Of a stretch of 40,315 bases of DNA, positions 7,982-27,328 are shown piece by piece. The notes below the pieces were generated by a model, which saw only the letters and a program-made list of their open reading frames with translations, did not search any database and was not told where the DNA came from. The translations under genes were made by a program, and so were the position numbers. The stretch is from IMG/VR virus record IMGVR_UViG_2541047797_000007, one strand, 5' to 3'. The stretch's first letter is position 1; every line of letters begins with the position of its first letter. This stretch comes from a virus. Lineage: Duplodnaviria; Heunggongvirae; Uroviricota; Caudoviricetes.

Positions 7982-8007
7982 TTAAAAACAAGGCCGCGAA
8001 AGCGGCC
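7982..8007 (-). terminator. Rho-independent terminator (minus strand) directly downstream of palindrome copy 1
   Basis: On the minus strand: GGCCGC-TTTC-GCGGCC hairpin followed by TTGTTTTTAAC; convergent with the plus-strand terminator at 7921. Confidence 0.7.
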
Positions 8008-8008
8008 T

Positions 8009-8020
8009 GTGACATGTCAC
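8009..8020. repeat. Perfect 12-bp palindrome GTGACATGTCAC, copy 1 of 3
   Basis: Exact match read from the sequence; overlaps the stop of the 8017..8313 gene and abuts the terminator hairpin. Confidence 0.9.
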
Positions 8021-8313
8021 GCTCTTTTTCTGAATGATAGCCATTCGAAAAATGATGACATTCCACCGCAGACAATAGCAAAGATGATCCCACCAAAGAA
8101 GAGAAGGCCAGCCTGCCACCACTCCCACCGCCATACATCCACAGCGCCAACCATACCAACAATCGCTCCAACAAATGGAATATAGCTCACGATGAAAGCA
8201 ATGGGGGCTGCAATTATCCAGTGCAATCCCCACCATGATTCAAGCCCAGCCATAATTGCTGCCAACTGAAAAAGACCAACGACGATATAAACAATGAATC
8301 CTATAGCTTGCAT
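8017..8313 (-). CDS. Small integral membrane protein (98 aa), possible superinfection-exclusion/immunity-type moron
   Basis: Three hydrophobic helices, Trp-rich; sits alone between the ejection-protein genes and the antirepressor island. Function is inference only. Confidence 0.55.
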   Translation of the reverse strand: MQAIGFIVYIVVGLFQLAAIMAGLESWWGLHWIIAAPIAFIVSYIPFVGAIVGMVGAVDVWRWEWWQAGLLFFGGIIFAIVCGGMSSFFEWLSFRKRA

Positions 8314-8508
8314 GTAGTCACCTATTTACCCAGTAAAAATCAGAGGCCTCCCCTCAATAAGGCTTGCAACAAGAACTATTCCCTGCACAACAAAGATGAA
8401 CCAGCAAATAGCTTGAGTCTGAGGGTTAAGAAAATATTTGTAGCGGTCAATAAATAACAACCCACCAAAAATTATCACACTCAAAATAATTAAAAACACA
8501 ACACTTCC

Positions 8509-10983
8509 TTATTGCGGAGTGACATCCTGAGGTCGCCACCAGTATGTCTGGTTAAACTCTTTCTTCGAACGTTGCTCCATTTTACGCAAATAGCCTGGTG
8601 AAAAATACTCCTGCATCTGGTTAAAAATCATGTGATCGAGAGCCGCCTTCAAGTACCAGAGATTCGCACCTGGCATCAAACCTTTCCCCAGCTTCACCAA
8701 ATCACCACCAGTCTGCTCACTCTTCCCTTCCACAGCATTTAACGGTATGCCCTGAGCAATCTTCACTACGTCATCAACCAGACCAGCTACCGGGCCAAGC
8801 ATCGACGCCAGCGCGCCGCTTCCGTACCTAGTGTGATCTGACAATAAAAAGTCACCGTAAAGGCCAAGACCACCACCTTTCAGTAGAGCACCAAGCCAAA
8901 ATTTAGCAGCATCTTCTCCTGTCATCTCGCGAGGATTACGACCAGACGCAAGGTCGTTAAGTTGCTGCGACAAAGCGCCAAGAATGGTCGTACTGGCAAT
9001 AAACGTCGCAATATATGCCGCACGCCCACCAGCAGACGGCATACCCATAGCGCGTGACCAGTGACGCATAACCACCGAGATAGGGAACGATTTAAACAGG
9101 AAAACACTTCTCGTTAATTCACCTTTCCATGTTCCACGCTGAATACCAGAACCGGTTATCAGTTGCTCACGTGCTCCCGGTGTAATAACAGCCATATCAA
9201 CTTCTTCAGTTACGGCACCGAGCAGTTTACGCATTGCCTCAAATTTCACGCGTTCAGGCTCACCAAGATGTTTAACTGCTGAATCAGGGATACGCATAAT
9301 GCTTTCCGGTGTCAGCATCGTATTATTGCCGTTCCCCCAGTCCTCCTGTTGCGCCAGCTTCCATACGCTCCAGTCTGTGTCAGTAATCCCTTTGCTTTTC
9401 AGGATACGAAAATCAGAATCATCGAGGCTACGAAGGTCTGGTGTCCGTGACACTACTTCTCCCAGGCTTCCCATCATGGTTACGCCATAGGCGCGCTTGT
9501 GCGCATCTGACCATGCTGTAAGCCCACTGGCACGCATTACCGCCGTTGCAGCCCAACGAGACACAGACGGCCCCATATTATCCATCGCCCAGCGGTTAAC
9601 GCTGCCAAGTAGAGATTCCATCGCCAGACCAGCGCGGCGCGCCCGCGCAAGTTCTGTACGGTTCGTTGGGTCCATAGCTTCAAGCTGGTTGCGGAATAAC
9701 TGGTTCATTGGAAGGTTGGTAACCTTCGCAGACAGATACATGGTTCCAAGATCAGAGAACGATGACAGCAACGCGGATCCGAGTCTGCTGGCAACCAGCC
9801 AGTTGCGGATATTGTCAGACCATCGCGCGATGTGCGGATTCGCTACAGGCTGTGTCTTTCCGGAAATAAAGTTGTACAGATTCTCTGTGTTGTTCGCCAG
9901 CCGCTCGACTTTACCGGTTTTACTCGGGTTAGCTGTTGCCGTTTCTGCCTTAACCTGATCAAGAAGGGAGCGGAAAACATGATCGGGGTTTGGACCATAT
10001 GTTTCCACCAGAGCAATATCTTTACTGATACCTTCCAGGTGACCGACCATGATTTCCCATAGAGAGCGATCGCCATAAAGTTGTTGATATTGGAGATAGG
10101 AATCAGCATCTTTGAAATGTATCTGTCGTGATGCATTACCACGGTTAGCACGTGCGCCGGAAATTCGCATTCCGGTATCAGTAAGCTTATTCAGCCCACC
10201 AGTAGCGATCGTGTTATAAGCCTCTCCAAGAAATGCAGACAACTCGGCATCGTTCATCAGTTGTCCATCGGCTCGGGTATAATATTTGCGATCCAGCTTA
10301 CCTATAACATCGTTAACCCACTTATCCTTTGATACCGCCCCAACCTTTTCCATAGAATGATGTTGAGGGATCCCCCAGTTTTCGAGATAGCCAATGTCCC
10401 CACCAGCATCATTAAACCGGCGGCGCAGCAGCTCTGTAACTTCTCTCCACGCCTTAGCACCTTTTCTTGCTTTAGCATTGCCAGTATTTTGCCCCCGCAT
10501 TTCATATACCAGGTCACGTACGCCCGCTTCATCTTCAAACAGACCAAAAAAGCGAGGATCAACTGCTTCGAATGCCTCCTGCAATTGACTCAATGCATAA
10601 TCACGGGTGGCTTTTGTTCTGGATTCAACAGAGAGGAAATTAGATTTACCGTCTGCATTAAAAGCTATAGTACGGTTAAGAGCGCCAAGTTTCCCATCAG
10701 CCCCTTGATAGCTATTGATAAATTTATCCAATCTCTGACGCGCGGCTATAGTGAGAGCCACACGACGTTTCTTTAATGCCGCTTCTCGCTGTAATTCTTC
10801 AGATGCCAATTGTGCTGCTCGATATAGCCGCTCTGATTCGGAAAGTTGTCGCCACGACATCGGGTCATCACGAGCAATGGAGCGCATATTTCGATAAATG
10901 CGGTCTTCAATGTTCTGTATTTCTCGCGCCGTTAACATGCGCTGCGCCGCCTGCTGAACCGCCTGTATACATTCCTGTCTCAT
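8509..10983 (-). CDS. Large internal virion / ejection protein (824 aa)
   Basis: Last of three large consecutive, translationally coupled genes downstream of the nozzle genes; the position resembles podovirus internal core/ejection proteins. No specific motif recognised. Confidence 0.55.
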   Translation of the reverse strand: MRQECIQAVQQAAQRMLTAREIQNIEDRIYRNMRSIARDDPMSWRQLSESERLYRAAQLASEELQREAALKKRRVALTIAARQRLDKFINSYQGADGKLGALNRTIAFNADGKSNFLSVESRTKATRDYALSQLQEAFEAVDPRFFGLFEDEAGVRDLVYEMRGQNTGNAKARKGAKAWREVTELLRRRFNDAGGDIGYLENWGIPQHHSMEKVGAVSKDKWVNDVIGKLDRKYYTRADGQLMNDAELSAFLGEAYNTIATGGLNKLTDTGMRISGARANRGNASRQIHFKDADSYLQYQQLYGDRSLWEIMVGHLEGISKDIALVETYGPNPDHVFRSLLDQVKAETATANPSKTGKVERLANNTENLYNFISGKTQPVANPHIARWSDNIRNWLVASRLGSALLSSFSDLGTMYLSAKVTNLPMNQLFRNQLEAMDPTNRTELARARRAGLAMESLLGSVNRWAMDNMGPSVSRWAATAVMRASGLTAWSDAHKRAYGVTMMGSLGEVVSRTPDLRSLDDSDFRILKSKGITDTDWSVWKLAQQEDWGNGNNTMLTPESIMRIPDSAVKHLGEPERVKFEAMRKLLGAVTEEVDMAVITPGAREQLITGSGIQRGTWKGELTRSVFLFKSFPISVVMRHWSRAMGMPSAGGRAAYIATFIASTTILGALSQQLNDLASGRNPREMTGEDAAKFWLGALLKGGGLGLYGDFLLSDHTRYGSGALASMLGPVAGLVDDVVKIAQGIPLNAVEGKSEQTGGDLVKLGKGLMPGANLWYLKAALDHMIFNQMQEYFSPGYLRKMEQRSKKEFNQTYWWRPQDVTPQ

Positions 10984-10988
10984 TTAAT

Positions 10989-12791
10989 TTAACCTCTCAA
11001 GAAACACGCCACAGCGACATCAAACAGGCTGGAATCCTGTATTGCCTGCTCACTTTCCCTGTTCGCTTCATCCAGTACTTCACGCGCACTGCGCGATTGT
11101 GGATTACCATCATCATCCAGCACGGTGATTATCATGTCAGGTGATTCAAGCAGCGAGTCTTCAGCTATACGCAGATCAATATCTCCTGCCGGATCTGCCA
11201 TCATTTTTTGTTCTGTCTGTTGCAATATCTTACCGGGCTCAAAAGGAGCTACTTCGTCTGGCGTCCTGACCTCTGCTGTTTTATAGAATGAAACAGCCTG
11301 AGCATTAAGTTCACTTTCTGCCTGCTGTCGTCGTGCCAGTTCTGCTCGAGCTTCAAAAAACTGACCGCCAGGCTCATGCGGTGCCAACGCGTTACGGGAA
11401 AATTCCAGGCGCTCTTGTGCCTGCCGGATTCGTTGGTCAATATCGCGAAGTCTGACCTGTTTATCTGATCGAGCACGAGACAAAGCTTTACCGCTACCGG
11501 TTGGCTCTTCTGCAAGAATTTGTGCGCGCTGTTCAGTGAGATTTTCAATAATTCGTTGGCTATTAGCGATTTCAGACTGGTAAACCTGTCTATCGCCACG
11601 CGGCAAAAGCTGCGCGGCCTGTTCTTCAAGCAACCGATTTTCTATAGCGCGCGCCGTTACTCCATCATCTACAGATGACAGAGCCTCATTAACTGCCTGA
11701 GACAACAGACTCTTGCGCCCAGGAATTTCACTGAAAGATGCAGACTCAACAATGCTGGCAACGTCTACAGGTCTCCCCTGGCTAACATCAGACATAGCTT
11801 TTCGCAGAGCCTGAATGTGAGAATTGCGCGAAAGCACGTTGATCGGCACGCCGGGCGCAATATCAATTTCAGCATGATGAGCGGCATTCGCCGCCAGTGC
11901 AGCATCAACATCAACTGGTGAAAAATTTGGTGCGCTTGTAGACTCGCCGCGAGAGTTCATAAATCTGCCGACACCACCAAACGCCACCCCAAGAACAGCA
12001 TCAATAGCAATTGCCTGTCGATCCAACACATCATACTGGTTAGCCATTTCGCTATAGCCACCATCACGAAGCGTTTTTGCAGTAAGCCCACGCTGTGCCA
12101 TACCGAACGCAATATTTGTACCTGCGGCATAGGCAATATCTGGCGTTGCACGTACTGCTGTTGCTGCGGCGCGTCGCACTGAACTTTCACCCGTCCGCGC
12201 AAGCTGGGCCGCCACACCTTCCGCCAGCGCACCACCAGCACGTAACCCGAGGCTCATAGGGATCAGTGTTCCGGCACCAGCAGTAATACCCTGCACTAAT
12301 CCCGCTTCCTGCGCCGTCCTGAAATCAACACCCTGTGCTGTCAGCCGTTCAAACTCAGAAAAACCCTGTAGAGAAGTTACCGCCGCAGCACCTCCGACCG
12401 GACCACCGAGCGTTGTACCGACAACAGCCTGCCCTCCCATATCGAACAACCCATAAAGGACCTGCCCGGCGGTTCCGGTTGTCGCGGCATCAGGCGTCAG
12501 CCGCTTAACCTGCTGCTCTGCTAGTTTTCTCTGCTCGGCAATGTATGAAACTGAAGTGTCATTGAGCGAGGTGTTTTCGTTAACAAACTGAGCAATCGGG
12601 GATACGATTTTATCCATCCCTGCCCATAGCAACTGATCTGGCTTTGCCACCAGCCCGGAGTACAAACCAGACAATGCCGCTCCTACAGCATTGTCGAAAA
12701 AACCAACATCGCTGTTAAAGCCAGCTGGATTTGATGCTGCTTCGTCAAGCTGCTGATTCTGGTTTACTGGATTAAGGCCAAAGTAACTCAT
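10989..12791 (-). CDS. Internal virion / ejection protein (600 aa)
   Basis: Ala/Gly-rich protein; start overlaps the stop of the upstream gene (ATGA). Confidence 0.5.
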   Translation of the reverse strand: MSYFGLNPVNQNQQLDEAASNPAGFNSDVGFFDNAVGAALSGLYSGLVAKPDQLLWAGMDKIVSPIAQFVNENTSLNDTSVSYIAEQRKLAEQQVKRLTPDAATTGTAGQVLYGLFDMGGQAVVGTTLGGPVGGAAAVTSLQGFSEFERLTAQGVDFRTAQEAGLVQGITAGAGTLIPMSLGLRAGGALAEGVAAQLARTGESSVRRAAATAVRATPDIAYAAGTNIAFGMAQRGLTAKTLRDGGYSEMANQYDVLDRQAIAIDAVLGVAFGGVGRFMNSRGESTSAPNFSPVDVDAALAANAAHHAEIDIAPGVPINVLSRNSHIQALRKAMSDVSQGRPVDVASIVESASFSEIPGRKSLLSQAVNEALSSVDDGVTARAIENRLLEEQAAQLLPRGDRQVYQSEIANSQRIIENLTEQRAQILAEEPTGSGKALSRARSDKQVRLRDIDQRIRQAQERLEFSRNALAPHEPGGQFFEARAELARRQQAESELNAQAVSFYKTAEVRTPDEVAPFEPGKILQQTEQKMMADPAGDIDLRIAEDSLLESPDMIITVLDDDGNPQSRSAREVLDEANRESEQAIQDSSLFDVAVACFLRG

Positions 12792-15301
12792 TGCGGAATA
12801 TCTCCGGAGAATCTCTGACGCTTCTGTGTCAGATTAAGAACAACGGGAGAACCATCATCTTTCAGCAGATAACCAGTACCAAGTTTCACCAGGTACTGAC
12901 TATCGCCGTAACTTTGCAAACCATACTGACCAGGCGGTGTTTTTATCCCGGAGCCGACAACTTGTTCATTCCAAGCCTGATTAACCTGCTTATCGAATTG
13001 CTCCGCAGACATTCCCCACGGCAAAAGGACATTCCCCATTCCGTTATAGTCATGCACGCCACCTGTAGCTACGTTAACAGCCTGTTTCCAGACATCATTG
13101 TCAATTTCGCCTGATACCACGCCTTTTTTCGCCATCACACCAGCGTAATAATCCTTTGCGATCTCGTATGCCATTGATGCCCCCTGAGCGTCACCAGCAA
13201 ATGCATCCTTCACCATGTCAGAAAACTCAAGGCGAAGATCAGCATCTTTAGGCATCGGAATACCTTTCGCATCATCAGTACCTTTACGAGCCGCCGCGCC
13301 AGCAAGAATTGTCTGCGCAGCGGTTTCAGGAGACACGGAAACATCCGGATTAAACCAGTTTTTTTCTGCCAAAATACCACCTGGCTTATCCATCAGTATC
13401 CCGGCAACGGCAGCAGATGGAGCGTTGGCACTGATCTGCTGTAGTGCTGACATATACACCTGCCCACCACCAGTGCTCTGCCTGATGGTATCGAGATATG
13501 CTGCCTGTTGGGAAACTGGAGCATCACGAAAGAAAACACCGATCTGATTGGCCTCGTCTTTGGAAAAGAACGTCAGTGGAGTGCCATATGACTTAGCAAG
13601 GTCACTGACCTGAGCGGCACGCAAGGCAACGCTCTGTCCAAAGTTATCCTTATTGCTCATGTCGATAGGCTTTGCCTGTCCGGCGGCAAGAGAGAACTGC
13701 ACAGGATCCGATTGCCGCTGCTTTATCACCTGATTTGCAGCCGAAACAACGTTGTCATAAAGAGCTGCGCGTGCCGCATACCCCTCCCCTGTCTCACCAG
13801 TATCCGGGCGTAATTGCTCAACATATGCTGTAATGCTGCTTGTCGGCATGTTGCGGAAAGAGCCTATATACTGTCCGGCGATTTGCGTATTTCTGAACTC
13901 GGTATATCGCAGGTTTCCTTCTCTGACTCCATAAGCTGCAATAAAATCAGCCTCACCAGGTGGGTTAGGAAATTCAACGCCACGCATATACGCAGATGTC
14001 GCATCGCGAACTTGGCTGTCAATCATCGTTTTATATTCAGCCTGCTGCTGCCGACGCAGTTGATCCGCCTGTCGCATAAAACTTGCCTGCGCCTCAGGAG
14101 ATGCCGCATCGAATGCTGCATTACCGGTATAGCGTTTGGTGTTGGTTGGAATTGTTGATAAACCAAGTGCTGCACTGACACCAGCAGTTAACTGCTGATC
14201 ACTGTATGGCTGGCTACCGTTCTCATGATGGATAATGGCTGCACAAAGCGCCTTCAGGGTATCAGGATTAGATGCATCGAGAGGCTCATCAGCAGAAACG
14301 CCAAGTTGTTCGCACACTGCTTTGATATACGACATAGTGTCATTTTTATCAGTAGGCGGTGCCCAGCGATTAATTATCTCGCTGACGGTATCGATACCCT
14401 GCCGCTGATACGACATCAGGTTACGCCCTAATGCACGAATCCCGTGCTCAGGTGTTTCGAATTTAGCAAATCGACCATCATCACCGGTCTGGCCTACCCA
14501 CGGATTAGTTTTGCTGTATTCGAGATTTCCTGGGTTATTGTTGCGTATGCCACGGGCACGCTCGGAAGAGTCATTATCTGCTACAGCACGGCGAGCTCCA
14601 GCAGCAGTATCACTTAACTCGCCATTACTTTGGATGAATGCGGTCGCATTGTTTGCCGACCACTGGGACAATGCGGCATCAGCAACCTTCTCTTTAAACT
14701 CGATTTTCTTGGCCTGTATTTGCTCGTCGCTCCAGCCATGCGCAACGCCGTAATCCTCAATTTGCTGGAAAGTTTGCTTATTAGCCAATACGTATGCGGC
14801 GTTGTCGCCATACAATGCTGCGGCATTTTTACCATTGTTCAGCAGCGTCGCCTGAAACTGGCCTTCTTCGTAGGCATTTATTTGCCCTATCTCGTGCCGC
14901 CCGGCCTGCGTAGTGAACTGAATGCGCTGCTGCTGCGCCTGCTGCATGAAAGCATTACGAGCCTGTTCATCCGGCAGCGACATAGCCAGTTGCTCGACCT
15001 GGGCATCAAACTGCTGCGTATACTCCTGACCTTTTCCAATAGCATTTTTCCCTTTCAGGTTAAGCAATCCTGTTTCAGGATTATTCAGCAGATCACTGCT
15101 TATCTGACTGAGGTTAAGAGATGCCTCCTGAGCCAGAGCGATATTGGCACGCTGTTTTGCCTGCCCCAAAACATCAATTGCCTCTGTCCCTGCCCGAACA
15201 AAAGCATCACTAATACCTGGCTGAGAAAACGTCTGCAAGCCTGCTGACTGAACTCCACGACTCTCAACCTGACGTCCGGATACTGTTGGTACGACTGGCA
15301 T
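12788..15301 (-). CDS. Large internal virion protein, possibly with a cell-wall-degrading region
   Basis: Start taken at the internal Met whose ATG overlaps the upstream stop (TAATG) rather than the track start at 15376. Contains segment RNNNPGNLEY...HGIRALGRNL; a cell-wall hydrolase role is a weak inference. Confidence 0.5.
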   Translation of the reverse strand: MPVVPTVSGRQVESRGVQSAGLQTFSQPGISDAFVRAGTEAIDVLGQAKQRANIALAQEASLNLSQISSDLLNNPETGLLNLKGKNAIGKGQEYTQQFDAQVEQLAMSLPDEQARNAFMQQAQQQRIQFTTQAGRHEIGQINAYEEGQFQATLLNNGKNAAALYGDNAAYVLANKQTFQQIEDYGVAHGWSDEQIQAKKIEFKEKVADAALSQWSANNATAFIQSNGELSDTAAGARRAVADNDSSERARGIRNNNPGNLEYSKTNPWVGQTGDDGRFAKFETPEHGIRALGRNLMSYQRQGIDTVSEIINRWAPPTDKNDTMSYIKAVCEQLGVSADEPLDASNPDTLKALCAAIIHHENGSQPYSDQQLTAGVSAALGLSTIPTNTKRYTGNAAFDAASPEAQASFMRQADQLRRQQQAEYKTMIDSQVRDATSAYMRGVEFPNPPGEADFIAAYGVREGNLRYTEFRNTQIAGQYIGSFRNMPTSSITAYVEQLRPDTGETGEGYAARAALYDNVVSAANQVIKQRQSDPVQFSLAAGQAKPIDMSNKDNFGQSVALRAAQVSDLAKSYGTPLTFFSKDEANQIGVFFRDAPVSQQAAYLDTIRQSTGGGQVYMSALQQISANAPSAAVAGILMDKPGGILAEKNWFNPDVSVSPETAAQTILAGAAARKGTDDAKGIPMPKDADLRLEFSDMVKDAFAGDAQGASMAYEIAKDYYAGVMAKKGVVSGEIDNDVWKQAVNVATGGVHDYNGMGNVLLPWGMSAEQFDKQVNQAWNEQVVGSGIKTPPGQYGLQSYGDSQYLVKLGTGYLLKDDGSPVVLNLTQKRQRFSGDIPQ

Positions 15302-19380: not shown

Positions 19381-19706
19381 TCACCTCCGTTACCGTACAG
19401 AGTTTCAGCCGCTGATTTTTCTACATCCCTGGAAACAGGAGCGATCGCCATATCAGTGATCTGCAGATCGGCGCTGCGATTAACACCATCGTCAGTTTCT
19501 CTGGCAGACAGGCCTCGAATAACAGCCTTTGCAGTTATCATCACTTCTGTTCCGACGCCCTGAGGTTGCGCCTTCAGCTTATTCAATGTGTCGTTATTCA
19601 GCGTGATGCACAGCCCCCACGGGTATTCATCGCGAGTTCTGGTTTCTCCGCTCTCATCCTGGTAGCTGTCAGTGCCGGTTTTGAGGTTTACGAGTTCCAT
19701 ATACAC
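19377..19706 (-). CDS. Structural-module hypothetical protein (109 aa)
   Basis: Coupled ORF in the head-tail region. Confidence 0.45.
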   Translation of the reverse strand: MYMELVNLKTGTDSYQDESGETRTRDEYPWGLCITLNNDTLNKLKAQPQGVGTEVMITAKAVIRGLSARETDDGVNRSADLQITDMAIAPVSRDVEKSAAETLYGNGGE

Positions 19707-19750
19707 TCCTGCAATAAAGGGGCCGAAGCCCCTTGTCTCATCCGCGAGGC

Positions 19751-20095: not shown

Positions 20096-20096
20096 C

Positions 20097-20534
20097 TTAA
20101 CCAGTTACTTTTGAGCGGATCGGATACGGCGTATTGGCATCAACATCAAGATTGATACCCGCAGTGAATTTGCCAGCCGTTAGTGGGCCAGTTGCGACGG
20201 AGTAGTTAACACGCAGATATCGCTGAACACCGGCAGGCACCTTTGCAGAAACAACTCGTTTACCTGCTGTCAGGGTAGCCTTTGCCAGTGCGCCACTATC
20301 ATAAATAGTGGACCATGAGCTGTTATTCTCACTCGTCTGCAACTGGATGTTTACAGTTGCCTCACCACTTGCCGTGGCGGCTTCGTTAACCAGCACCCAA
20401 AACTCAAGCGGATAACCCACGCCGATATCACGACGTTTTCCGTCAATTGGACCGAGATCGATTACGTCAGTAGAAGCCGCGGTATTCGTAACCGCCTGAG
20501 CTTCGGAGAACATCAACAGTTTGTCGGTGATCAT
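20097..20534 (-). CDS. Capsid decoration / accessory head protein candidate (145 aa)
   Basis: Immediately downstream of the major capsid gene; Ser/Thr/Ala/Gly-rich, beta-rich-looking sequence. Confidence 0.45.
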   Translation of the reverse strand: MITDKLLMFSEAQAVTNTAASTDVIDLGPIDGKRRDIGVGYPLEFWVLVNEAATASGEATVNIQLQTSENNSSWSTIYDSGALAKATLTAGKRVVSAKVPAGVQRYLRVNYSVATGPLTAGKFTAGINLDVDANTPYPIRSKVTG

Positions 20535-20585
20535 CTTCTTTCTCCATTAGTGGGTCTGTTACGACCCACAGGTTAATAACAGGCG

Positions 20586-21578
20586 TTACACCACGCGGGC
20601 TTCTGTTTCCAGAAGCGCATCAGTTTCACGGATTGGTACACCACGGAATGAAGTCCACCACTCGCCTTCTGTCTCTTTTACGCTGATCGCCAGAGATGTT
20701 TTCTCCAGAGATTGCAGATCAAGAGCCTGGCCTACAGTGCGGTTCATGTAGAACACCGGGCGACCCATGCCACGATTTGGAATGCGATGCAGTGCTTTAA
20801 CCATCAACTTCGCAATATTTGCGGCAGAGGAAGGTTCTGAAAGATTGCTGACATCGATGTTTGCAATGCGAACAACATAACGCCAGTCACGCAGAGCAAG
20901 TCCGTTGTCCCATTTGTAATGGGTACGGTAGCCTTCGTACTTGCCGCCATTCGCATCTTCCAGTGTCACCTGGCCTTTATCTTCCATCTGGATGCCAGCC
21001 TTCTGCCCTTTCGGGAAGATGCCATGCACGGTGTTTTCGCCCCACACCACTAACCAGATTGAGGTGTTATCTGTACCCGTGCCACCAGCATCAATGATGT
21101 TCTGAGCATTACCCGCAGACAGGCTGGAATAGCGGGAGGACAGTCCCATAAACTGCTGAGGGTTAACGCTGGAATCACCATAAAACAGTGTCTGCGCCAT
21201 CTGCTGATTCATCGCTTCAATAAATGCGCGGTCTTCAGACAGGCGGAATTCGGCAGTATTACCGTTCAGATCAGCCAGTGACTTATCGACTTCAGCATAG
21301 GTTTCCAGCATGCCAACGGAATCGGTTACCTGCACTGTGGTTGATTTGCTTGGCTGTACGCCATAGTTCAGCAAACGCCAGGTAGCTGAAGGTAAACCAG
21401 AACGAATGGTGGTTCGGTGTCCGGTAGGAAGGTTCCCTTCGACAAAAGGCATATCCTGAAGGATCGGGTTTGTTTGACCGAGAAGCTCGATAATCTTATC
21501 GACTTTCCCGTTTGGATCGACGCGCTTACCCCAGTCAGCCAGCGTTAGCGCAGTTAAGCCTTTAACAGCCATTGTCAT
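20586..21578 (-). CDS. Major capsid protein (330 aa)
   Basis: Follows the scaffold gene; SD AGAGAGGA upstream of the ATG at 21578; size and position fit a podovirus major capsid protein. Confidence 0.75.
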   Translation of the reverse strand: MTMAVKGLTALTLADWGKRVDPNGKVDKIIELLGQTNPILQDMPFVEGNLPTGHRTTIRSGLPSATWRLLNYGVQPSKSTTVQVTDSVGMLETYAEVDKSLADLNGNTAEFRLSEDRAFIEAMNQQMAQTLFYGDSSVNPQQFMGLSSRYSSLSAGNAQNIIDAGGTGTDNTSIWLVVWGENTVHGIFPKGQKAGIQMEDKGQVTLEDANGGKYEGYRTHYKWDNGLALRDWRYVVRIANIDVSNLSEPSSAANIAKLMVKALHRIPNRGMGRPVFYMNRTVGQALDLQSLEKTSLAISVKETEGEWWTSFRGVPIRETDALLETEARVV

Positions 21579-21586
21579 TTCCTCTC

Positions 21587-22288
21587 TTATTTGCCATAGA
21601 GCACTTCGGCCGCACTACGCTGGCCTTCATTACCACCGGTGACCATGCCATCTTCAGACATCGCCTTTCCGATTCTCACGAACGTTTTGACCAGATCAGG
21701 GTGATTACCCAGCCCGGTGGTGTTCAGATATTCTTTGAGTTCAGGTGTCCCGAACTGGTCAAGCGCACGCTGTGCGACGCTAAGGTTAGAAATCAACTTG
21801 CCGCCACCGATTTCTTTGTCAGCTTTTACATCCGCAGCCCACTGCTCGGTTGTTTTCTGCCAGGCTTCTGCCTGGCGCTGCTGAACACCTGCCAGAATCT
21901 TCGGATAAGCATCAACCAGCTTTTGCGCTTGCTCGTTGGTCAGGTTAAGTTCTCGCGCCACCGGCTCGAATTCCTTCAACGCTTCTGTATCCAGCTCTAC
22001 GCCTTCGGCAGCCTGAAACTCGTACTTCTCAGGCGCACCCTCTGGTTTATCGCCGTCCTTTTTTTCACCCTGCTTATCGTTTTCAGGCTTTTTGTCATCA
22101 GCAGGTTTATCGCCATCAGCAACAGGTTGTGGCTTATCACCTTCCGGTTGTGATGGATCACCAACTGGAGCAGGGTTATCACCTGCAGGCGCTGACGGTT
22201 CTGACGCAGCCGGAGCTGCTCCACCATCGACTGGTTGCTCATTGCAAAGACGGCGATACAGCAAACGCTCAAATAAATTCATGATCAC
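21587..22288 (-). CDS. Scaffolding protein
   Basis: Acidic, Pro/Ala/Asp/Lys-rich low-complexity N-terminal half and helical C-terminal half, located between portal and capsid genes. Confidence 0.65.
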   Translation of the reverse strand: MIMNLFERLLYRRLCNEQPVDGGAAPAASEPSAPAGDNPAPVGDPSQPEGDKPQPVADGDKPADDKKPENDKQGEKKDGDKPEGAPEKYEFQAAEGVELDTEALKEFEPVARELNLTNEQAQKLVDAYPKILAGVQQRQAEAWQKTTEQWAADVKADKEIGGGKLISNLSVAQRALDQFGTPELKEYLNTTGLGNHPDLVKTFVRIGKAMSEDGMVTGGNEGQRSAAEVLYGK

Positions 22289-22581
22289 TCCTGTTCACTG
22301 GCCTCTTTGGCCATCTTCAAATACTGTTCAGGGCAATGCGCCATAACGCGCTGAAACAGTTCCAGCGCCAGATTGCGTTGCCCCTCATTAAATGCCATTG
22401 CCATAGCGTCCATCGGTGAGATAGCGGAAAACACACGGCCTTTCTCCAGCACCGACCAGACAACGCGACGCCCCTGTTCACTGCTCATGACAAAGCGAAT
22501 GTCATCAATTTCACGCTGCGCCATGTCACGTTGCTTACGGGCGTTTTCTTCTTTCAGTTGATCGTCTTCGTAATCTGTCAT
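22285..22581 (-). CDS. Head-module hypothetical protein (98 aa)
   Basis: Coupled between portal and scaffold genes (ATGA overlaps on both sides). Confidence 0.5.
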   Translation of the reverse strand: MTDYEDDQLKEENARKQRDMAQREIDDIRFVMSSEQGRRVVWSVLEKGRVFSAISPMDAMAMAFNEGQRNLALELFQRVMAHCPEQYLKMAKEASEQE

Positions 22582-24257
22582 TGTGATTGCCCACCCTGAC
22601 CACTAACTGCATTCGCCATAGATGACAAAACACTCGGATCCGAAGTTTTAGCTTCGCTTAGCGTCTTGGCACCCTGTGCCGCCGCCATCCCCATCGCCAT
22701 CATTTGTTGCTGCTGTTGTTGCTGTGCCCGTTGCTGGCGAGCCTGCTCAACCTGTTCCTGCGGAACAATGACGGTTGGAGACACTCCGGACATATCAGCG
22801 AATGCATCGATCGCCTGATCAACGTTGAGTTTGTCGAGAGCTTCTGGTTTCGCTTGCGCAAGTTGACCAATGAAGTTAACCGTGGACGCCAGACTGGACA
22901 GGCCGATAGACTTCTGCGCCTGAGCCATGACGGAAATGTATTCGACCTTCAGGGGCATACCTTCCATCACGTCTGGCGGTGGCGGCAGCATGTTTTTACG
23001 CACCATCATCGAGAAAGCGCGGTCAATGAGAGGATTAAGACATTCGTCGTTCAGACGCTCCAGAACCGGACCCAACATCAGAAGTTTTTCTTCTTTCATT
23101 TCGATCACCGCTTCAACAGGCATCGAGCGGGTATTGATGTTCTGCAACATCATGAACAGATCGACAAAGTAGGCGCTGTTAATGATTTGACGAGTGTCCT
23201 GAATGTCTGCTACCAGATCTGCTGTACTGGGGTTAACCAGATAAGCAGGCCTGAAACCATCCTGACCAGTAATCTGATCGATATACGTGATGTCGCCAGG
23301 AAGAAGGGAGGCGCGCTGATTCTTGAGGGAAGTCGGAGCAACCATCGGCGGATTGGTGGCTTTATCAATCAACTGCGACTTGCGCTTCTGGAGAAGCTGC
23401 AATGCCTTAACAGGTCCAAGCGCCAGCATACCCGGGCATGATGATCCATAAACATCTTCGCCGTTAACTTCCCAGCGCGGAGCCATAATTGGAAACTCAT
23501 CGAATCCGGACTCACGCAACAACTTGTCGTTATCACCGCCAACCTCGTAATAAACCGATTTGAATGGCTTGTTCTTGCTATCCAGCTTCGATGTATCGCG
23601 GTCAATGTTCGGGTAAACCGAATGCATCACTTCAATCCACTTCTCGTAGGTGCCGCTTTCCCACATGCTTTTTACGGATTCGCTGACGTTATTTAGCCCG
23701 AACTCCTGAACAAGCTGACGAACAGTCATAGAGAACTTGCGAAAACAGGTGTCCACACTGCCACGAGGTGAGTTAGCCAGGTAGTAACTGCCTATCGGGA
23801 ATGGCATTGTGCGAATGATGTCCTCGTCATCCTCCAGTACCGCCATTGCACCGGTGCTGTATGTGCCGAGGCTTCCGTATAACTGCGGCAGCGACTGATA
23901 GAGATTCGACTTATTGAACATATCGTTCATGCGGTTCTGCACCGCCTCAAGCCACAACTTAACAGGGCCATAATCCATCATTTCAGGATCTGGCGTAGCC
24001 AGGCGAAACCACGGACGCGCGGGGCTTGTGATGCCTGACATCATGCCGCTGGCGAGAGTGCGCGCCGCCATAGTCCCGGTCGAATCAATAATGCGTGTAT
24101 TGCGTCGATCGTTACGGTTGACCTCAGAAGTCAGAAAGCGGGAACCACGCGGGTTGATGTAATCACTCAACTCGCGCCAGTGCGGCTCGAACGACTGACG
24201 CTCGCTTTCAAGTTGTGCGAACTGTTTGTTCAATCGCTCTTTAGTTGTTTCCGCCAT
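22578..24257 (-). CDS. Portal protein (559 aa)
   Basis: Size, position after terminase, and Q/A-rich acidic C-terminal tail; SD GGAG upstream of the ATG at 24257. Confidence 0.75.
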   Translation of the reverse strand: MAETTKERLNKQFAQLESERQSFEPHWRELSDYINPRGSRFLTSEVNRNDRRNTRIIDSTGTMAARTLASGMMSGITSPARPWFRLATPDPEMMDYGPVKLWLEAVQNRMNDMFNKSNLYQSLPQLYGSLGTYSTGAMAVLEDDEDIIRTMPFPIGSYYLANSPRGSVDTCFRKFSMTVRQLVQEFGLNNVSESVKSMWESGTYEKWIEVMHSVYPNIDRDTSKLDSKNKPFKSVYYEVGGDNDKLLRESGFDEFPIMAPRWEVNGEDVYGSSCPGMLALGPVKALQLLQKRKSQLIDKATNPPMVAPTSLKNQRASLLPGDITYIDQITGQDGFRPAYLVNPSTADLVADIQDTRQIINSAYFVDLFMMLQNINTRSMPVEAVIEMKEEKLLMLGPVLERLNDECLNPLIDRAFSMMVRKNMLPPPPDVMEGMPLKVEYISVMAQAQKSIGLSSLASTVNFIGQLAQAKPEALDKLNVDQAIDAFADMSGVSPTVIVPQEQVEQARQQRAQQQQQQQMMAMGMAAAQGAKTLSEAKTSDPSVLSSMANAVSGQGGQSQ

Positions 24258-24271
24258 TTCAATGACTCCGG

Positions 24272-24478
24272 TTACTGACCAAGCAGCGTTTTACCGCTGG
24301 TATTAGCGGTTGATGTGTCGCCCTGAGAACCGGTAAGCAGCGTAGAACTACGACCAGCAGCAGCGCGACGGCGACGTGTTTCTTCGTCGCGGGCATCAAC
24401 AACGGCGGCATCCTGCTCCTGTGGTGCTGCCTGAACTTCTGGTGTTGCAGGCACTGATGGTGAGCTACCCATGCACAT
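24272..24478 (-). CDS. Small hypothetical protein (68 aa) upstream of portal
   Basis: ATG with SD GGAG; its initiation region CGGAGTCATTGATATG is a near copy of the portal initiation region CGGAGTCATTGAAATG. Confidence 0.45.
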   Translation of the reverse strand: MCMGSSPSVPATPEVQAAPQEQDAAVVDARDEETRRRRAAAGRSSTLLTGSQGDTSTANTSGKTLLGQ

Positions 24479-24568
24479 ATCAATGACTCCGTACGCAATT
24501 AAATTATTACCAATTTAACCACATATGATTTATTTATCGTAGATAGTTGACATTTAACGCACGAATTA

Positions 24569-24583
24569 TTACCTTTCAGGTAA
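24569..24583. promoter_or_regulatory. Operator-like site TTACCTTTCAGGTAA in the terminase-portal gap
   Basis: Perfect TTACC-N5-GGTAA preceded by AATTAT as at the early promoter; a TTGACA hexamer lies at 24547-24552. Confidence 0.55.
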
Positions 24584-25052
24584 GCAAAGAGTTCATTCCG
24601 GTTATTAACCTGACTGGCTTGTCGTTAAATTGAACAGGTGGAGTGAGCTTTTATTTTGAGCAGTACGGCGTATGGCACATGCGCCGATAGCGGTCTGGAT
24701 ACGTTTAAGGGGCACCCTCACTTGCTCGAGCAAACGAACCAGGTAGCCGGAATGTGCAAGTCGAGCGGTTTTATTCCGCGCACGGGGATTCACCATCCCG
24801 GCGATTCGGTGTGACGCATCGGAAGAGACGAGGGTACAACGATGAGAGCATTTATGGAGCCGCGACAAAGTGTGGCGCCTTAACAGGCTAAGTGCTCTCA
24901 GCGTTGTGGCATTAGCTCAGTTGGACACTTATACAACATGAAGTTACAATGCCTGCATGCGGCGCTTATTCAGAATGGGCACTTCGATAAAACAAGTGCC
25001 ATCAATATTGCGGAAGCCATCAACGCTGGATTTAATGCCATTAAATAACACC

Positions 25053-25064
25053 GTGACATGTCAC
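25053..25064. repeat. Perfect 12-bp palindrome GTGACATGTCAC, copy 2 of 3
   Basis: Exact match; followed on the plus strand by the hairpin and T-run at 25069..25096, i.e. the same module as copies 1 and 3 but in the opposite orientation. Confidence 0.9.
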
Positions 25065-25068
25065 AAAC

Positions 25069-25096
25069 AGCCAGCCGATGAGCTGGCTTTGTTTTA
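25069..25096 (+). terminator. Intrinsic terminator on the plus strand (antisense to the late operon)
   Basis: Hairpin AGCCAGC-CGATGA-GCTGGCT followed by TTGTTTTAT. Confidence 0.6.
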
Positions 25097-25138
25097 TCCT
25101 CATCAGAGGATATCAACGACATTATCCCCACCAGCGGA

Positions 25139-26614
25139 TTAAGCATAGGGATCGTAATCTGTGATGGCCTTGCCTTGCTGGTTCTGCTGCCCGGGAATTC
25201 GCAGACGCTTCGACACAGGAAAAGCAAACGTCAGCAGTAGCGCATCGCCTTTACCCGGCGAACGCCCAAGCCGCTCCTTGATATCTTCCTTCGGTTCGAT
25301 AACGATTTTACCGTCCACGCGAACTTTGTACTCTGCCGCCGACAGGTCGTCTGCAGTTTCCTGGTCATCCAGCATGCCGCCCAGCCTCAGCCATGTCTTA
25401 CATGAGTTGAACATCTCCCCACGCTTGTTGAGCATCTGCGGGTCAGTAGACGCGCCACCGAACGGAACAAGTTGCCATGTACGACCCCAGCCGTCACCGA
25501 TTGACTTCAGACCAGTTCCGTAACCGAAGTCGATGAACACTGCGTCAGCCTGGTACTGGTCTTCAAAGTCAGCGATACGCTTCGCCATAATCAGATCGTC
25601 AGTGGTCTTGTTGCCAGTCCACAGCACCTTACTGTGCAGCCCCTGCCGCAGGTATATCACAGCGTCATCAACGCCTGAGTATGCCGGGTCAACGCCGATT
25701 ATCACCGGAGCATGTGCAACCTGCGCAGCGGTGACCACCCGTTTCATTGCCTCGTCAGTAAGTCCGGTAGGGATAAACTGCAATTCAGATGCATCCGGGA
25801 ATATGCCGCGCACACGGATTTTAACGAAGTCGCTGTCTTCCCCGTAGTCATCAACCCATTTCTGCAACTGCTGTTTGTTGGTGCCTTCCACCGTCCGGCT
25901 GTCAATCTGCGCAGTTTTCCAGCGGTGTTTATATTTGCGGAAACATTCGCGGAAACGTCCGGTATTACGCGTCGGGTTTCCGAACGCCACCCAGATAATC
26001 TCAGTGTCTTCGTCCGTTAGCGCACCCTCGGCAACTTCCCACACCAGATCCGCAATGTTCGACGCTTCATCGAATACCACGATGATGCGTTTGCGCTCGT
26101 TGTGTAGTCCGGCGAATGCCTCAGTGTTGTGCTCAGACCAGGGTATTGCGTCAGCTCGCCACCGCTTGTCGTGTCCAGGATCATTGCTGTACATCGCGGT
26201 AGCGGTACAGGTAAACCAGTCTTTCGTGATAGCAAGGTTCGACCACTTGATAATTTCCGGCCAGGTCTTCGTTCGTAGCTGGTTGTCGGTGTTGGCGGTC
26301 ACCACGACCTTACAATCCTCGCAAGTGGACATGCCCCAGTTGATCAGCATTGAGATGAATGCGGATTTACCAATACCGTGACCCGAAGCACGTGCCAGCA
26401 TAAGCGGCTGATAGCGCGTCTCTGGATTCTGCAGGTGATCACGTATCTCTCGGAACGCATCAGCCTGCCACTTACGTGGGCCGGTAGCATGTGCCAGTTC
26501 AGTCCCCTCTTCCCCCCACGGGAACGCATAGAGGGCATAGCCAAGCGGATCGTGAGTGAACCCTGCAATATCCTCGATCAACTGCTCTTCAGGAGATAAC
26601 GCTGTATCTGTCAC
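25139..26614 (-). CDS. Terminase large subunit
   Basis: Walker A-like motif (LARASGHGIGKSA) near the N-terminus and an acidic-residue nuclease-like C-terminal half; GTG start overlapping the terS stop. Confidence 0.85.
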   Translation of the reverse strand: MTDTALSPEEQLIEDIAGFTHDPLGYALYAFPWGEEGTELAHATGPRKWQADAFREIRDHLQNPETRYQPLMLARASGHGIGKSAFISMLINWGMSTCEDCKVVVTANTDNQLRTKTWPEIIKWSNLAITKDWFTCTATAMYSNDPGHDKRWRADAIPWSEHNTEAFAGLHNERKRIIVVFDEASNIADLVWEVAEGALTDEDTEIIWVAFGNPTRNTGRFRECFRKYKHRWKTAQIDSRTVEGTNKQQLQKWVDDYGEDSDFVKIRVRGIFPDASELQFIPTGLTDEAMKRVVTAAQVAHAPVIIGVDPAYSGVDDAVIYLRQGLHSKVLWTGNKTTDDLIMAKRIADFEDQYQADAVFIDFGYGTGLKSIGDGWGRTWQLVPFGGASTDPQMLNKRGEMFNSCKTWLRLGGMLDDQETADDLSAAEYKVRVDGKIVIEPKEDIKERLGRSPGKGDALLLTFAFPVSKRLRIPGQQNQQGKAITDYDPYA

Positions 26615-27207
26615 TGATTACCATCCTGACGTTCTTTGAGTCGCTTCCTGGCTGCTGCTATGCGATCAGCAATTGTCACATTCACATTAACATCCAGACG
26701 TTCTTTGAACGCGTTGACATCAACATGCTTACCAATCAGCTCAAGGTTCTTCACCTTGTCAGGCCATTTAATTTTTTTGAGGATTGTCTCTATCGAATCC
26801 TCGTTCATGTTCATGATGGTCGATGACAGATCAAAGCCACTAAGCGTAGTGCGCCAGATTTTCGGCCACTCACGGATTGGTTTAAGGCTCCCATCGTCGT
26901 TGAGGATGTCGATCACGTCCATCTGGTCGATCTCCACCAGGCGCATGAGAACGTAATCAGCACTGACGCGCATTCGTTTGTTGCGCTCCTCCATCAACTC
27001 GGCAATCCGTTTTTGAATGCGTTCATCGCGCATCATGACGCTGGCTTTAACTGCCGCTGTATTTGGGGAGAATCCTGCGTTAATCGCTGCCTGAGTCTGG
27101 TTTTCAGGCGTTTTGATGTATGACTGGCAATAAGCCTCCTGCATTGCTGTTAGTGGCTTAAATTGCGTTGATTTGCGTTTATAGGTTTTAGGTTCAGCAG
27201 GCATCAT
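26611..27207 (-). CDS. Terminase small subunit
   Basis: Directly upstream of and overlapping the large subunit gene. Start placed at the tandem internal ATG codons (27207) because the track N-terminal extension runs through the upstream terminator hairpin. Confidence 0.7.
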   Translation of the reverse strand: MMPAEPKTYKRKSTQFKPLTAMQEAYCQSYIKTPENQTQAAINAGFSPNTAAVKASVMMRDERIQKRIAELMEERNKRMRVSADYVLMRLVEIDQMDVIDILNDDGSLKPIREWPKIWRTTLSGFDLSSTIMNMNEDSIETILKKIKWPDKVKNLELIGKHVDVNAFKERLDVNVNVTIADRIAAARKRLKERQDGNQ

Positions 27208-27249
27208 AACCACCGTGGTAATAGTTACCGTTGTGGTAATAGTACCATG

Positions 27250-27276
27250 CAAAATAAAGCCGCCATAGTTGGCGGC
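27250..27276 (-). terminator. Intrinsic terminator immediately upstream of the packaging/late operon
   Basis: Minus strand: GCCGCC-AACTAT-GGCGGC hairpin followed by TTTATTTTG, about 40 nt upstream of the terS start. Confidence 0.65.
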
Positions 27277-27316
27277 AGTATCCAAAACCGTCAAATTCAT
27301 CATGCATAATCTACTC

Positions 27317-27328
27317 GTGACATGTCAC
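27317..27328. repeat. Perfect 12-bp palindrome GTGACATGTCAC, copy 3 of 3
   Basis: Exact match; overlaps the stop of the 27325..27672 gene and lies 40 nt upstream (minus strand) of the terminator at 27250..27276. Confidence 0.9.

Follow-up and report, generated by a model that had tools for sequence, protein, structure and literature searches.

The repeated palindrome of this prophage belongs to a conserved unit which, as judged from its occurrence across phage lineages, is a gene plus a site and not a palindrome plus a terminator. We hold with moderate confidence that its three copies are double-stranded DNA operators of the phage's own regulator (the product of 27325..27672), which sit at transcription-unit ends and may act there as roadblocks or insulators. 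The window, by which we mean the whole 40,315-nucleotide stretch analysed, is on its sequence an epsilon15/phiV10-like (Uetakevirus) prophage. A search of the whole window for GTGACATGTCAC, an exact 12-bp palindrome, found three copies (8009-8020, 25053-25064 and 27317-27328), the expectation from dinucleotide shuffles being 0.01 copies and none of 100 shuffles reaching three or more; allowing two mismatches added a single match in the window, which is chance level. The copies (P1 to P3), the terminators beside them (T1 to T3) and the neighbouring genes are:

P1 (copy 1), 8009..8020, no strand: 3' end of the late structural operon; the last late gene ends in it (TGA at 8019-8017, minus strand)
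P2 (copy 2), 25053..25064, no strand: convergent junction of terL (minus strand, end 25139) and the plus-strand cargo-gene remnant
P3 (copy 3), 27317..27328, no strand: the gp49-family gene 27325..27672 ends in it (TGA at 27327-27325, minus strand)
T1, 7981..8008, minus strand: intrinsic terminator, hairpin AGGCCGCTTTCGCGGCCT at 8008-7991, then TGTTTTTAAC; abuts P1; dG -13.3
T2, 25069..25098, plus strand: intrinsic terminator, hairpin AGCCAGCCGATGAGCTGGCT (site 25069-25088), then TTGTTTTATC; 4 nt after P2; dG -11.6
T3, 27249..27276, minus strand: intrinsic terminator, hairpin GCCGCCAACTATGGCGGC at 27276-27259, then TTTATTTTGC; 40 nt downstream of P3, upstream of terS; dG -13.8
Last late-operon gene, 8017..8313, minus strand: 98-aa membrane protein, phrog_3075; stop inside P1
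36-aa ORF, 24938..25048, plus strand: C-terminal remnant of a phrog_4846 cargo gene; TAA 4 nt before P2
terS, 26611..27204, minus strand: first gene downstream of P3 and T3; probable start by comparison with epsilon15
Two ATTACC...GGTAA(C/T)-type repeats, 27217..27246, minus strand: between T3 and terS; like the prophage-repressor binding sites annotated in epsilon15
Regulator candidate gene, 27325..27672, minus strand: 115 aa by ORF call; homologue of epsilon15 gp49 / N15 gp46, phrog_536

The stops of 8017..8313(-) and 27325..27672(-) are both the TGA within G-TGA-CATGTCAC, and P2 begins 4 nt past the TAA of the 36-aa plus-strand ORF (24938-25048), so that the order stop codon, palindrome, terminator is valid at all three copies. 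The preliminary description had placed the palindrome at these three positions, had copies 1 and 3 overlapping the stop of the upstream gene, regarded the module at copy 2 as inverted, and put an intrinsic terminator 1, 4 and 40 nt from the respective copies; the window search and shuffles, the two stops (8019-8017 and 27327-27325), the TAA of ORF 24938-25048, which makes the orientation consistent, and the hairpins with their tails bear this out. Hairpin dG runs from -11.6 to -13.8 kcal/mol and the tails are rich in U; all three rank within the top six terminator-like sites of the window, and each is predicted to be an intrinsic (Rho-independent) terminator, closing a transcription unit with a G+C-rich hairpin and a U-run. 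The T1 stem, GGCCGC/GCGGCC, is kept with differing loops in epsilon15, SPN1S, phiV10 and BUCT711, the T2 stem shows compensatory changes among relatives (CAGC/GCTG versus CGCG/CGCG), and T3 has an annotated counterpart in epsilon15 (39646-39672). T2 would end the plus-strand cargo transcript, and towards terL its T-run is weak; a promoter-like site lies by the 36-aa ORF, at 24922-24950. The true start of terS is probably 27204(-), as in epsilon15, which places T3 upstream of terS and not inside it. The repeats at 27217..27246 are unlike the palindrome in sequence, and their likeness to repressor sites is a similarity to the epsilon15 annotation.

Homologues of the regulator candidate, which measure 112 aa in most relatives versus 115 aa by the ORF call here, form a family of more than 1000 clusters in phages and prophages of Enterobacterales, Vibrio and Aeromonas (including epsilon15, phiV10, SPN1S, N15 and phiKO2), and we found them in N15, phiKO2, Yersinia P2/186-like, Vibrio and Aeromonas phages. 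The sequence GTGAC-NN-GTCAC was present in all homologue-bearing phages examined, with the exception of the Aeromonas phage, which has a one-mismatch variant. Among 100 loci retrieved through the protein alone, i.e. selected by the gene, it occurred in 160 copies against 1.7 expected, and it was linked to the gene in 93 of them: in 90 the first base of a copy lies exactly 1 nt ahead of the homologue's stop, despite C-terminal tails of unequal length, and in three more it lies within 300 nt. The linkage holds in five phage lineages. Away from the P3 and P2 positions there were only nine matches in 1.79 Mb. Across ten homologue-encoding genomes the 2-nt spacer was found 23 times (0.39 expected), every other length from 0 to 7 nt stayed at background level, and lambda has no 2-nt-spacer site. 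The gene-site link is correlative, the loci being homologue-selected. The motif is an element under selection and in repeated use, almost certainly as the site of a dimeric DNA-binding factor; GTGAC-NN-GTCAC is a short dyad-symmetric site that co-occurs with a gene, as an operator would. Comparative genomics in this way supports two earlier proposals, that the palindrome is the site of a dimeric factor and, strongly, that the 27325..27672 product is the candidate to bind it, gene and site co-occurring across unrelated phage lineages with the site usually overlapping the gene's stop.

In epsilon15, SPN1S and phiV10 the motif lies at the same three places as in the window; epsilon15 (~80% DNA identity to the window) and SPN1S have the exact 12-mer at all three homologous positions, whereas in phiV10 two of the three are exact and the third is off by one base. 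Homologues of P1 are at 19517 in epsilon15, 19662 in SPN1S, 19493 in phiV10 and 18526 in BUCT711, those of P2 at 2142 in epsilon15, 2174 in SPN1S and 2262 in phiV10. P2 is unchanged in ~45 distinct relatives, both its flanks are variable, and many different opposite-strand genes terminate 4-5 nt from it. The terminators do not follow the motif in this way: relatives of types b and c lack T3 after P3 and have another ORF or a LexA-box promoter instead. The reusable palindrome-plus-terminator module of the preliminary description finds no support in these close relatives, nor in N15, phiKO2, Vibrio and Aeromonas phages and BUCT711, where sites lie near ribosome-binding sites, upstream of promoters or within genes, and the control of read-through into late genes suggested there is a hypothesis; conservation in relatives, which had been put forward as a check, held for the motif and failed, in types b and c, for the adjacent terminator after P3.

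The candidate regulator itself looks like a DNA-binding dimer. An AlphaFold2 model (pLDDT 84) has a helix at 8-21, an extended segment at 22-32, two further helices and a Cys-rich ribbon. We read these as a Cys4 zinc ribbon at the C-terminus, preceded by a basic helix and a probable ribbon-helix-helix; structures of the ribbon-helix-helix class matched the model best. Profile matches were weak, to RepB-RCR_reg and to the 'LexA regulated protein' model, which we take to be a CopG-type ribbon-helix-helix protein. The motif's arms are invariant across lineages, whilst its central two bases are lineage-specific and uniform within a genome, and a conserved dyad with a free centre suggests that the helix, not the ribbon, reads the arms. 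Three arginines of the basic helix (Arg11, Arg16 and Arg18) scarcely vary, if at all, and the putative strand varies by lineage in parallel with the central dinucleotide, in a comparison of ~5 independent lineages that is confounded by phylogeny. The Aeromonas phage has both the most divergent homologue and an altered, asymmetric site, GTGACCGGACAC, three times, one copy being just upstream of its own gene. The protein is predicted to resemble the ribbon-helix-helix repressors (P22 Arc and Mnt, CopG, ParD-/TacA-type antitoxins), likewise small dimeric binders of short dyad-symmetric operators. In P22, arc and mnt lie next to the antirepressor module, and the regulator gene similarly adjoins antirepressor modules in several lineages. 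It differs from these repressors in its extra basic N-terminal helix and C-terminal zinc ribbon, in the lack of a family-level sequence match, and in operators that are mostly away from promoters.

Each site in this prophage lies at a transcription unit's 3' end, one closing the early-right operon, whose last gene is the regulator, one at the cargo/terL junction and one closing the late structural operon. If they are operators of the phage's own regulator, a dimer bound there would be a symmetric roadblock or insulator reinforcing the adjacent terminators, and early, late and convergent accessory transcription (the C4 RNA-ant operon and the cargo gene) would be kept apart. With P3 on the regulator's own stop, negative autoregulation is also conceivable, transcripts being truncated ahead of the stop; this would be an autoregulatory roadblock precisely on a gene's own stop codon, yielding stop-less transcripts. 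The gene for LacI carries a LacI site, O3, at its 3' end, and the bound repressor truncates transcripts before the stop codon. The placement is the same, as are the proposed truncated transcript and blocked read-through, but the protein families are unrelated and truncation here is by analogy only. Several observations sit uneasily with a roadblock: site positions are heterogeneous across lineages, in the lysogen the regulator's operon should be switched off, there is little apparent need for a roadblock when a strong terminator follows directly, and the -1 offset to the stop could reflect simple inheritance.

The preliminary description recognised no known control motif, and the site resembles the host matS, being the E. 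coli consensus GTGACATTGTCAC less one central base, with arms identical to those of matS, GTGACRNYGTCAC. On our preferred own-regulator reading, the arms being matS half-sites, recognition is probably MatP-like, on a 12-bp rather than a 13-bp frame; MatP enters the major groove with its helix alpha4 and its strand beta1. MatP-matS is the Ter macrodomain organiser of enterobacteria and vibrios, and the sites could be matS mimics bound by host MatP, which would exclude MukBEF, position or condense the DNA, or let it blend into the chromosome, with the neighbouring gene incidental or a modulator; we consider this unlikely. The sites within genes would suit such a structural role. The pair-carrying phages infect Escherichia, Salmonella, Klebsiella, Yersinia, Pantoea, Vibrio and Aeromonas, presumably all groups possessing MatP, and this coincidence of host range counts against the own-regulator reading in that it fits host MatP too. 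However, the phage spacing is always 12 bp and the 13-bp form, with a 3-nt spacer, is at background (1 versus 0.39 expected in the ten genomes, 0 versus 1.7 in the 100 loci). In the literature the matS of E. coli and that of Photorhabdus measure 13 bp, and 500 prophages of Escherichia and Salmonella are reported to lack and to avoid the 13-bp site. Further against host MatP, the motif is tied to the stop of one phage gene in 90 of 100 loci, and the Aeromonas variant is asymmetric and paired with a divergent phage protein.

A related reading, to which we give the same low probability, makes the phage protein a minimal MatP analogue with a 'private' matS, in which it would read the host organiser's GTGAC half-sites in a 12-bp arrangement, perhaps unusable by host MatP, and the phage would organise its own chromosome with it. 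Homology of the product to MatP was not detected (hhalign probability 0.08%, pairwise score not above shuffles), and the product does not have the MatP architecture of a Pfam PF06303 N-terminal bundle and a PF17414 ribbon-helix-helix with coiled coil: MatP's N-terminal four-helix bundle and C-terminal coiled coil are missing, with a zinc ribbon instead. The system differs from MatP-matS also in that the protein is phage-encoded and the sites, strictly 12 bp, lie at gene or operon boundaries, one of them over the gene's own stop codon. If this reading were true, P1, P2 and P3 might be bridged into loops matching the terminase and structural transcription units, or these units might be insulated, SMC-type complexes such as MukBEF might be kept off phage DNA, and the protein might rival MatP at host matS during infection.

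A conventional activator or repressor of nearby promoters (late terS, ant, LexA-controlled), for which placement at operon ends would be a by-product of compact intergenic regions, is rather improbable. N15 and phiKO2 have one site 24 nt upstream of the -35-like hexamer that precedes the anti-immunity (ant) genes, P3 lies ahead of a LexA-box promoter in type c relatives and Yersinia prophages, and two of the Aeromonas GTGACCGGACAC copies follow good sigma-70-like promoters, at about +11 to +22, a classical repressor position. Yet no promoter-like sequence was seen in a sensible position at P1 or P2 in this window, site-promoter distances vary between lineages, and the settings across lineages are mixed (by ribosome-binding sites, upstream of promoters, within repA, within late genes), those within repA and late genes fitting this reading poorly.

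We see little prospect for a late-gene antitermination switch, in which the regulator would be loaded onto RNA polymerase at the palindrome (compare lambda Q, or RfaH at ops) and give read-through of the adjacent terminators into terS and beyond. The window does share the order of lambda Q/qut/tR', with a small zinc-containing regulator gene, a putative site, a terminator and the first late gene; lambda Q too has a zinc-binding module, and a weak promoter-like match, GTGACA-18-CATGAT (9/12), begins in P3. There is no homology, however, searches of Pfam, PHROGs and NCBIfam having linked the product to no antiterminator family, and the conserved promoter and terminator of a lambda-type Q site are not found: the -10 is not kept in Salmonella-type or epsilon15-type sequences and T3 is lost in types b and c. 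Two of the three sites, P1 and P2, are at operon ends with nothing late downstream, and N15 and phiKO2 retain the gene-site pair despite having a Q-like protein of their own.

It is very unlikely that the 12-mer has no dedicated binder and is a conserved linker or microhomology promoting module exchange; mosaic breakpoints do fall at the right edge of P3 and P2 and in the P1/T1 region, but breakpoints are expected beside a selected site anyway, and a linker explains neither the invariant arms with free centre, the strict 2-nt spacing and the intragenic copies, nor why phage types with nothing else in common keep the pair. Least credible is an RNA element (a small 3' untranslated hairpin for processing, stability or an RNA-binding protein), an earlier alternative recommended by the transcription of all three window copies just before a terminator and disfavoured by a hairpin of 4 bp and -1.2 kcal/mol, by central bases that are self-complementary in this phage, needless for a loop, by non-palindromic centres that in N15, phiKO2 and VPHZ6 face either way with respect to transcription, unlike the stable hairpin of fixed orientation in a nut/boxB-type site, and by the absence of an Rfam match.

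Operators of a phage-encoded regulator remain our preferred reading, one that offers a concrete, testable function for a widespread 'hypothetical' phage protein family and defines the family's regulon in each genome. Operator placement at operon ends by terminators, and in the regulator's own stop codon, is unusual, and if the reading is true the system would be an accessible model of roadblock or insulator control in phage transcription. Although prophages are reported to avoid matS, the ones described here carry several conserved look-alikes one base shorter, so that cross-talk with the host MatP system, or insulation from it, comes into question.

The window is an enterobacterial prophage of the epsilon15/phiV10 type (Uetakevirus), whose late genes run on the minus strand. 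A search of the whole window recovered exact copies of the palindrome GTGACATGTCAC starting at 8009, 25053 and 27317 only (referred to here as P1, P2 and P3, with T1, T2 and T3 for the adjacent terminators), where 0.01 copies were expected and none of 100 dinucleotide-preserving shuffles reached three. Allowing two mismatches added one further match to the 12-mer, which is chance level. A strong terminator-like site adjoins each copy, with hairpins folding at -11.6 to -13.8 kcal/mol followed by U-rich tracts. The TGA within G-TGA-CATGTCAC is the stop codon of both ORF 8017..8313(-) and ORF 27325..27672(-), and P2 begins 4 nt beyond the TAA of a plus-strand 36-aa ORF. The three-copy arrangement of the preliminary description, inverted copy 2 included, was accurate, as the positions, terminators and stop-codon overlaps were all recovered. 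In the direction of late transcription the features are:

27325..27672, minus strand: last gene of the early-right operon, followed by P3 (27317-27328)
27276-27259, minus strand: T3 hairpin, 40 nt past P3
After T3, minus strand: two repeats resembling epsilon15 sites annotated as repressor-binding
Probable start 27204, minus strand: terS, then terL, after the repeats
25053-25064: P2, after terL, here facing a convergent cargo remnant
25069-25088, plus strand: T2 hairpin, 4 nt past P2
After P2 and T2, minus strand: portal through virion proteins, the last a 98-aa membrane protein, followed by P1 (8009-8020)
8008-7991, minus strand: T1 hairpin, abutting P1
Beyond P1 and T1, plus strand: convergent operon with isrK-like and C4 antisense RNAs and an antirepressor gene

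Because of this minus-strand gene order, P1, P2 and P3 mark the 3′ ends of transcription units. Within 24922-25048, the 36-aa ORF beside P2 is a cargo-gene remnant, as its only match is to the final 36 of the 140 positions of phrog_4846; a promoter-like site (10/12) lies immediately upstream of it. At 24909-24924, GCATTAGCTCAGTTGG resembles the 5′ part of a tRNA; ARAGORN found no tRNA in the window, and related O157 typing phages have an annotated tRNA-Arg within the homologous 4.5-kb stretch (24000-28500). Rfam matches place an isrK-like RNA at 6158-6234 and a C4 antisense RNA at 6259-6343, directly upstream of the antirepressor gene ant (6393-7049), a region which we take to be a phage P1/N15-type anti-immunity module inside a Uetakevirus prophage. 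This module converges on P1, and in N15 and phiKO2 one motif copy lies just upstream of the corresponding module. Three neighbouring tandem-repeat arrays (31726-31864; periods 12, 24 and 18 bp, the 24-bp unit 100% identical across 2.6 copies) fall within ORF 31347..32162(-) and are probably replication-origin iterons within the initiator gene. The palindrome was rejected as a prophage-repressor operator, as the annotated epsilon15 repressor sites are of an unlike, ATTACC-N5-GGTAAT type.

Epsilon15, whose DNA is ~80% identical to the window, carries the unaltered 12-mer at all three corresponding places (2142, 19517 and 39612). SPN1S likewise has it at three homologous positions; in phiV10 two copies are exact and the remaining one differs by a single base. 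That the phiV10 record begins midway through copy 3 reflects only where the record was cut, behind the stop codon of the last gene, and a physical genome end, cos or pac was discarded as an explanation. The motif is annotated in no record examined; some of the terminators next to it do carry annotations in the phiV10 and epsilon15 records. A degenerate copy at the end of the Rz-like spanin gene of epsilon15 (26618-26629) and SPN1S (26722-26733) (GTGACATGGCAT and GTGACATGTCAT; the epsilon15 copy overlaps the spanin stop codon) marks a fourth operon end in these two phages, with no counterpart in the window. Klebsiella phage BUCT711 has P3 and P1, lacks P2 after terL and carries two intragenic copies (23066 and 26462, both within late structural genes); given these extra copies and the missing P2, the sites vary in position even among members of the genus. 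P2 is invariant in ~45 distinct sequences from IMG/VR and GTDB-genome loci with both flanks variable, the hairpin beside it shows compensatory changes among relatives, and its right flank in these is occupied by a wide variety of cargo genes on the opposite strand, each with its end 4-5 nt from P2.

The sequence past P3 is mosaic among relatives: in type a, as in the window, the terminator, operator-like repeats and terS follow, in type b another ORF comes directly after P3, and in type c there is a LexA-box promoter and a umuD′-like gene. The palindrome with its terminator thus characterises P1 and P2 in the genus, and P3 in some members; to that extent the reusable palindrome-plus-terminator module proposed earlier holds, but types b and c show that it is not the unit which evolution keeps. 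Five of the compared loci, BUCT711 among them, have within 6 nt of P3 a TTGACT, a LexA box (TACTGT-N8-ACAGTA) and a umuD′-like gene (MGFPSPAADYVEQ...), and Yersinia P2/186-like prophages have a LexA-box promoter ~130-190 nt past the site.

Homologues of the 27325..27672 product were found by tblastn in N15 (gp46), phiKO2, P2/186-like Yersinia phages, and Vibrio and Aeromonas phages, and GTGAC-NN-GTCAC, expected ~0.04 times per genome, was found in the homologue-bearing genomes, in variant form in the Aeromonas phage. N15 and phiKO2 have three homologous copies each, at the gp46 stop codon, inside repA and upstream of the anti-immunity genes, this third copy lying 24 nt upstream of a -35-like hexamer preceding those genes; the annotated 18-bp partition sites of both phages are located elsewhere, and that identification was dropped. 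In the Yersinia phage the single copy lies at the stop codon of the homologue; there are three copies with the 2-nt spacer in Vibrio phage K233 and two in VPHZ6, of which one is 2 nt past the stop codon. The 100 loci that were retrieved with the protein as sole query contain 160 motif copies, where 1.7 were expected. This co-occurrence test is one-sided, the loci having been retrieved through the gene, and its only controls are lambda and the loci's own flanking DNA. In 90 of the 100 a copy has its first base exactly 1 nt ahead of the stop codon of the homologue, differences in C-terminal tail length notwithstanding, and the P2 copy is present in 58 of the 92 loci that extend at least 3 kb downstream; beyond these two positions there are only nine matches in 1.79 Mb. 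Among spacers of 0-7 nt only the 2-nt spacer is enriched, and the lambda control has zero such sites. Lambda has two GTGAC-N1-GTCAC sites, at 9747 and 19010 (GTGACCGTCAC, GTGACAGTCAC), vs ~0.05 expected. A contig of Limoniibacter endophyticus, outside the Enterobacterales/Vibrionales, carries an N15/phiKO2-like gene and site with near-identical flanks, which may be contamination or a recent transfer. On sequence comparison, the conserved partner of the palindrome is the gene, not the terminator, and this linkage, at the stop codon in 90 of the 100 loci and across phage lineages, supports the 27325..27672 product as the binding factor for which it had been a positional candidate.

This protein, a homologue of epsilon15 gp49 (phrog_536), is called "hypothetical" throughout, has no Pfam or NCBIfam family, returned nothing significant from Foldseek against the PDB, and its gene is not treated in the SPC32H and ZX5 papers. 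An AlphaFold2 model from a 40-sequence alignment (mean pLDDT 84) has a basic helix (8-21), an extended segment (22-32), helices at 33-45 and 55-77, and a Cys-rich C-terminal ribbon; the fold assignment is probable, and segment 22-32 would form the strand of a putative intertwined dimer. Little or no variation is seen at the Cys ligands or at Arg11, Arg16 and Arg18 of the basic helix.

The host Ter-macrodomain protein MatP recognises its target matS, GTGACRNYGTCAC (E. coli consensus GTGACATTGTCAC), through helix alpha4 and strand beta1, which enter the major groove. The phage site has identical arms and a centre one base shorter, and the modelled phage protein has its elements in the same order as the DNA-reading elements of MatP. 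Neither the arms nor the basic-helix arginines vary, the two central bases are AT, TG, GC, AC or AG by lineage (most genomes have one centre in all copies, the exception being K233, with two AC and one GC), and the putative strand differs between the same lineages as the centre does, with phylogeny as a confounder; this pattern fits a MatP-like division of labour between helix and strand. No sequence homology to MatP was detected (hhalign probability 0.08%, pairwise score no better than shuffles) in a comparison whose MatP side had no deep profile, the search with E. coli MatP giving only near-identical MatPs, and the phage protein contains no MatP Pfam domains. It may work like MatP at DNA; membership of the MatP family is not supported. 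Binding by host MatP itself would account for the identical arms and the host range, but with the strict 12-bp frame and the gene linkage we consider it unlikely. A published survey reported no 13-bp matS in 500 prophages of Escherichia and Salmonella and concluded that the site is avoided; such a search would have missed the 12-bp form. K233 has one canonical 13-bp matS-consensus site (GTGACACCGTCAC, 19491-19503) besides its three 12-bp sites. In the literature searched there was no relevant paper or phage-context mention for the 12-mer and its lineage variants, nor any paper on matS-like sites or a MatP-like protein or system in phages.

The most divergent homologue, in Aeromonas phage 14AhydR10PP, accompanies a changed, asymmetric site, GTGACCGGACAC, which also agrees with a MatP-like division of labour. 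This site is found three times (251, 3032 and 29428), with a ribosome-binding site and ATG of similar sequence directly 3′ of each copy (GAGAGGTTAAAT.. / GAAGGGTTAAAT..); one copy precedes the homologue's own gene, and two lie ~+11 to +22 from good promoter-like sequences. This context is close to that of N15, GTGACTGGTCAC-GGAGGGTTAAAA-ATG. Conventional promoter control fits N15, Yersinia and Aeromonas better than it fits the window, and is quite improbable as an explanation of the sites. GTGACA as a -35 element was rejected, its partner -10 not being conserved. The gene order in the window would suit Q- or ops-like antitermination loading, but P1, P2 and the relatives do not, which makes it very doubtful, and the read-through control first suggested is only partly supported. 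As RNA the palindrome folds at only -1.2 kcal/mol, the non-palindromic centres of N15, phiKO2 and VPHZ6 face either way with respect to transcription, a conserved copy is embedded in the repA coding sequence, and no Rfam family matches at the sites; the palindrome is better understood as a dyad-symmetric DNA site for a dimer. A mere recombination linker is highly improbable and an RNA element the least probable of all, these two being the poorest fit to the evidence.

The 12-bp dyad is selected, linked to one gene and spacing-specific, and in the genus it lies at transcription-unit ends beside functional-looking terminators. We infer, with somewhat better than even confidence, that the 27325..27672 product binds these sites with a role at transcription boundaries. 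Bound at operon ends, it would be a symmetric roadblock or insulator supplementing the terminators, serving the convergent junctions of the late operon with the C4-ant operon and of terL with cargo, and likewise the early-to-terS junction. At the site in its own stop codon, the protein could autoregulate by cutting its transcript short ahead of that codon, in the manner known for LacI at O3, a site likewise at its own gene's 3′ end. The operator-after-promoter context in Aeromonas and the site-RBS-ATG contexts (N15, Vibrio, type b) fit a protein that blocks RNA polymerase. The roadblock detail is tentative, at roughly half the probability of the boundary role: site positions are heterogeneous across lineages, with copies inside genes, a roadblock beside a strong terminator looks redundant, and the lysogen probably does not produce the regulator. 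Small phage DNA-binding regulators with dyad operators are well known as a kind; new here are the protein family together with its architecture, a matS-like site whose frame is shorter, the way this site is embedded in the stop codon of its partner gene in at least four phage lineages, and its placement at operon ends beside terminators.
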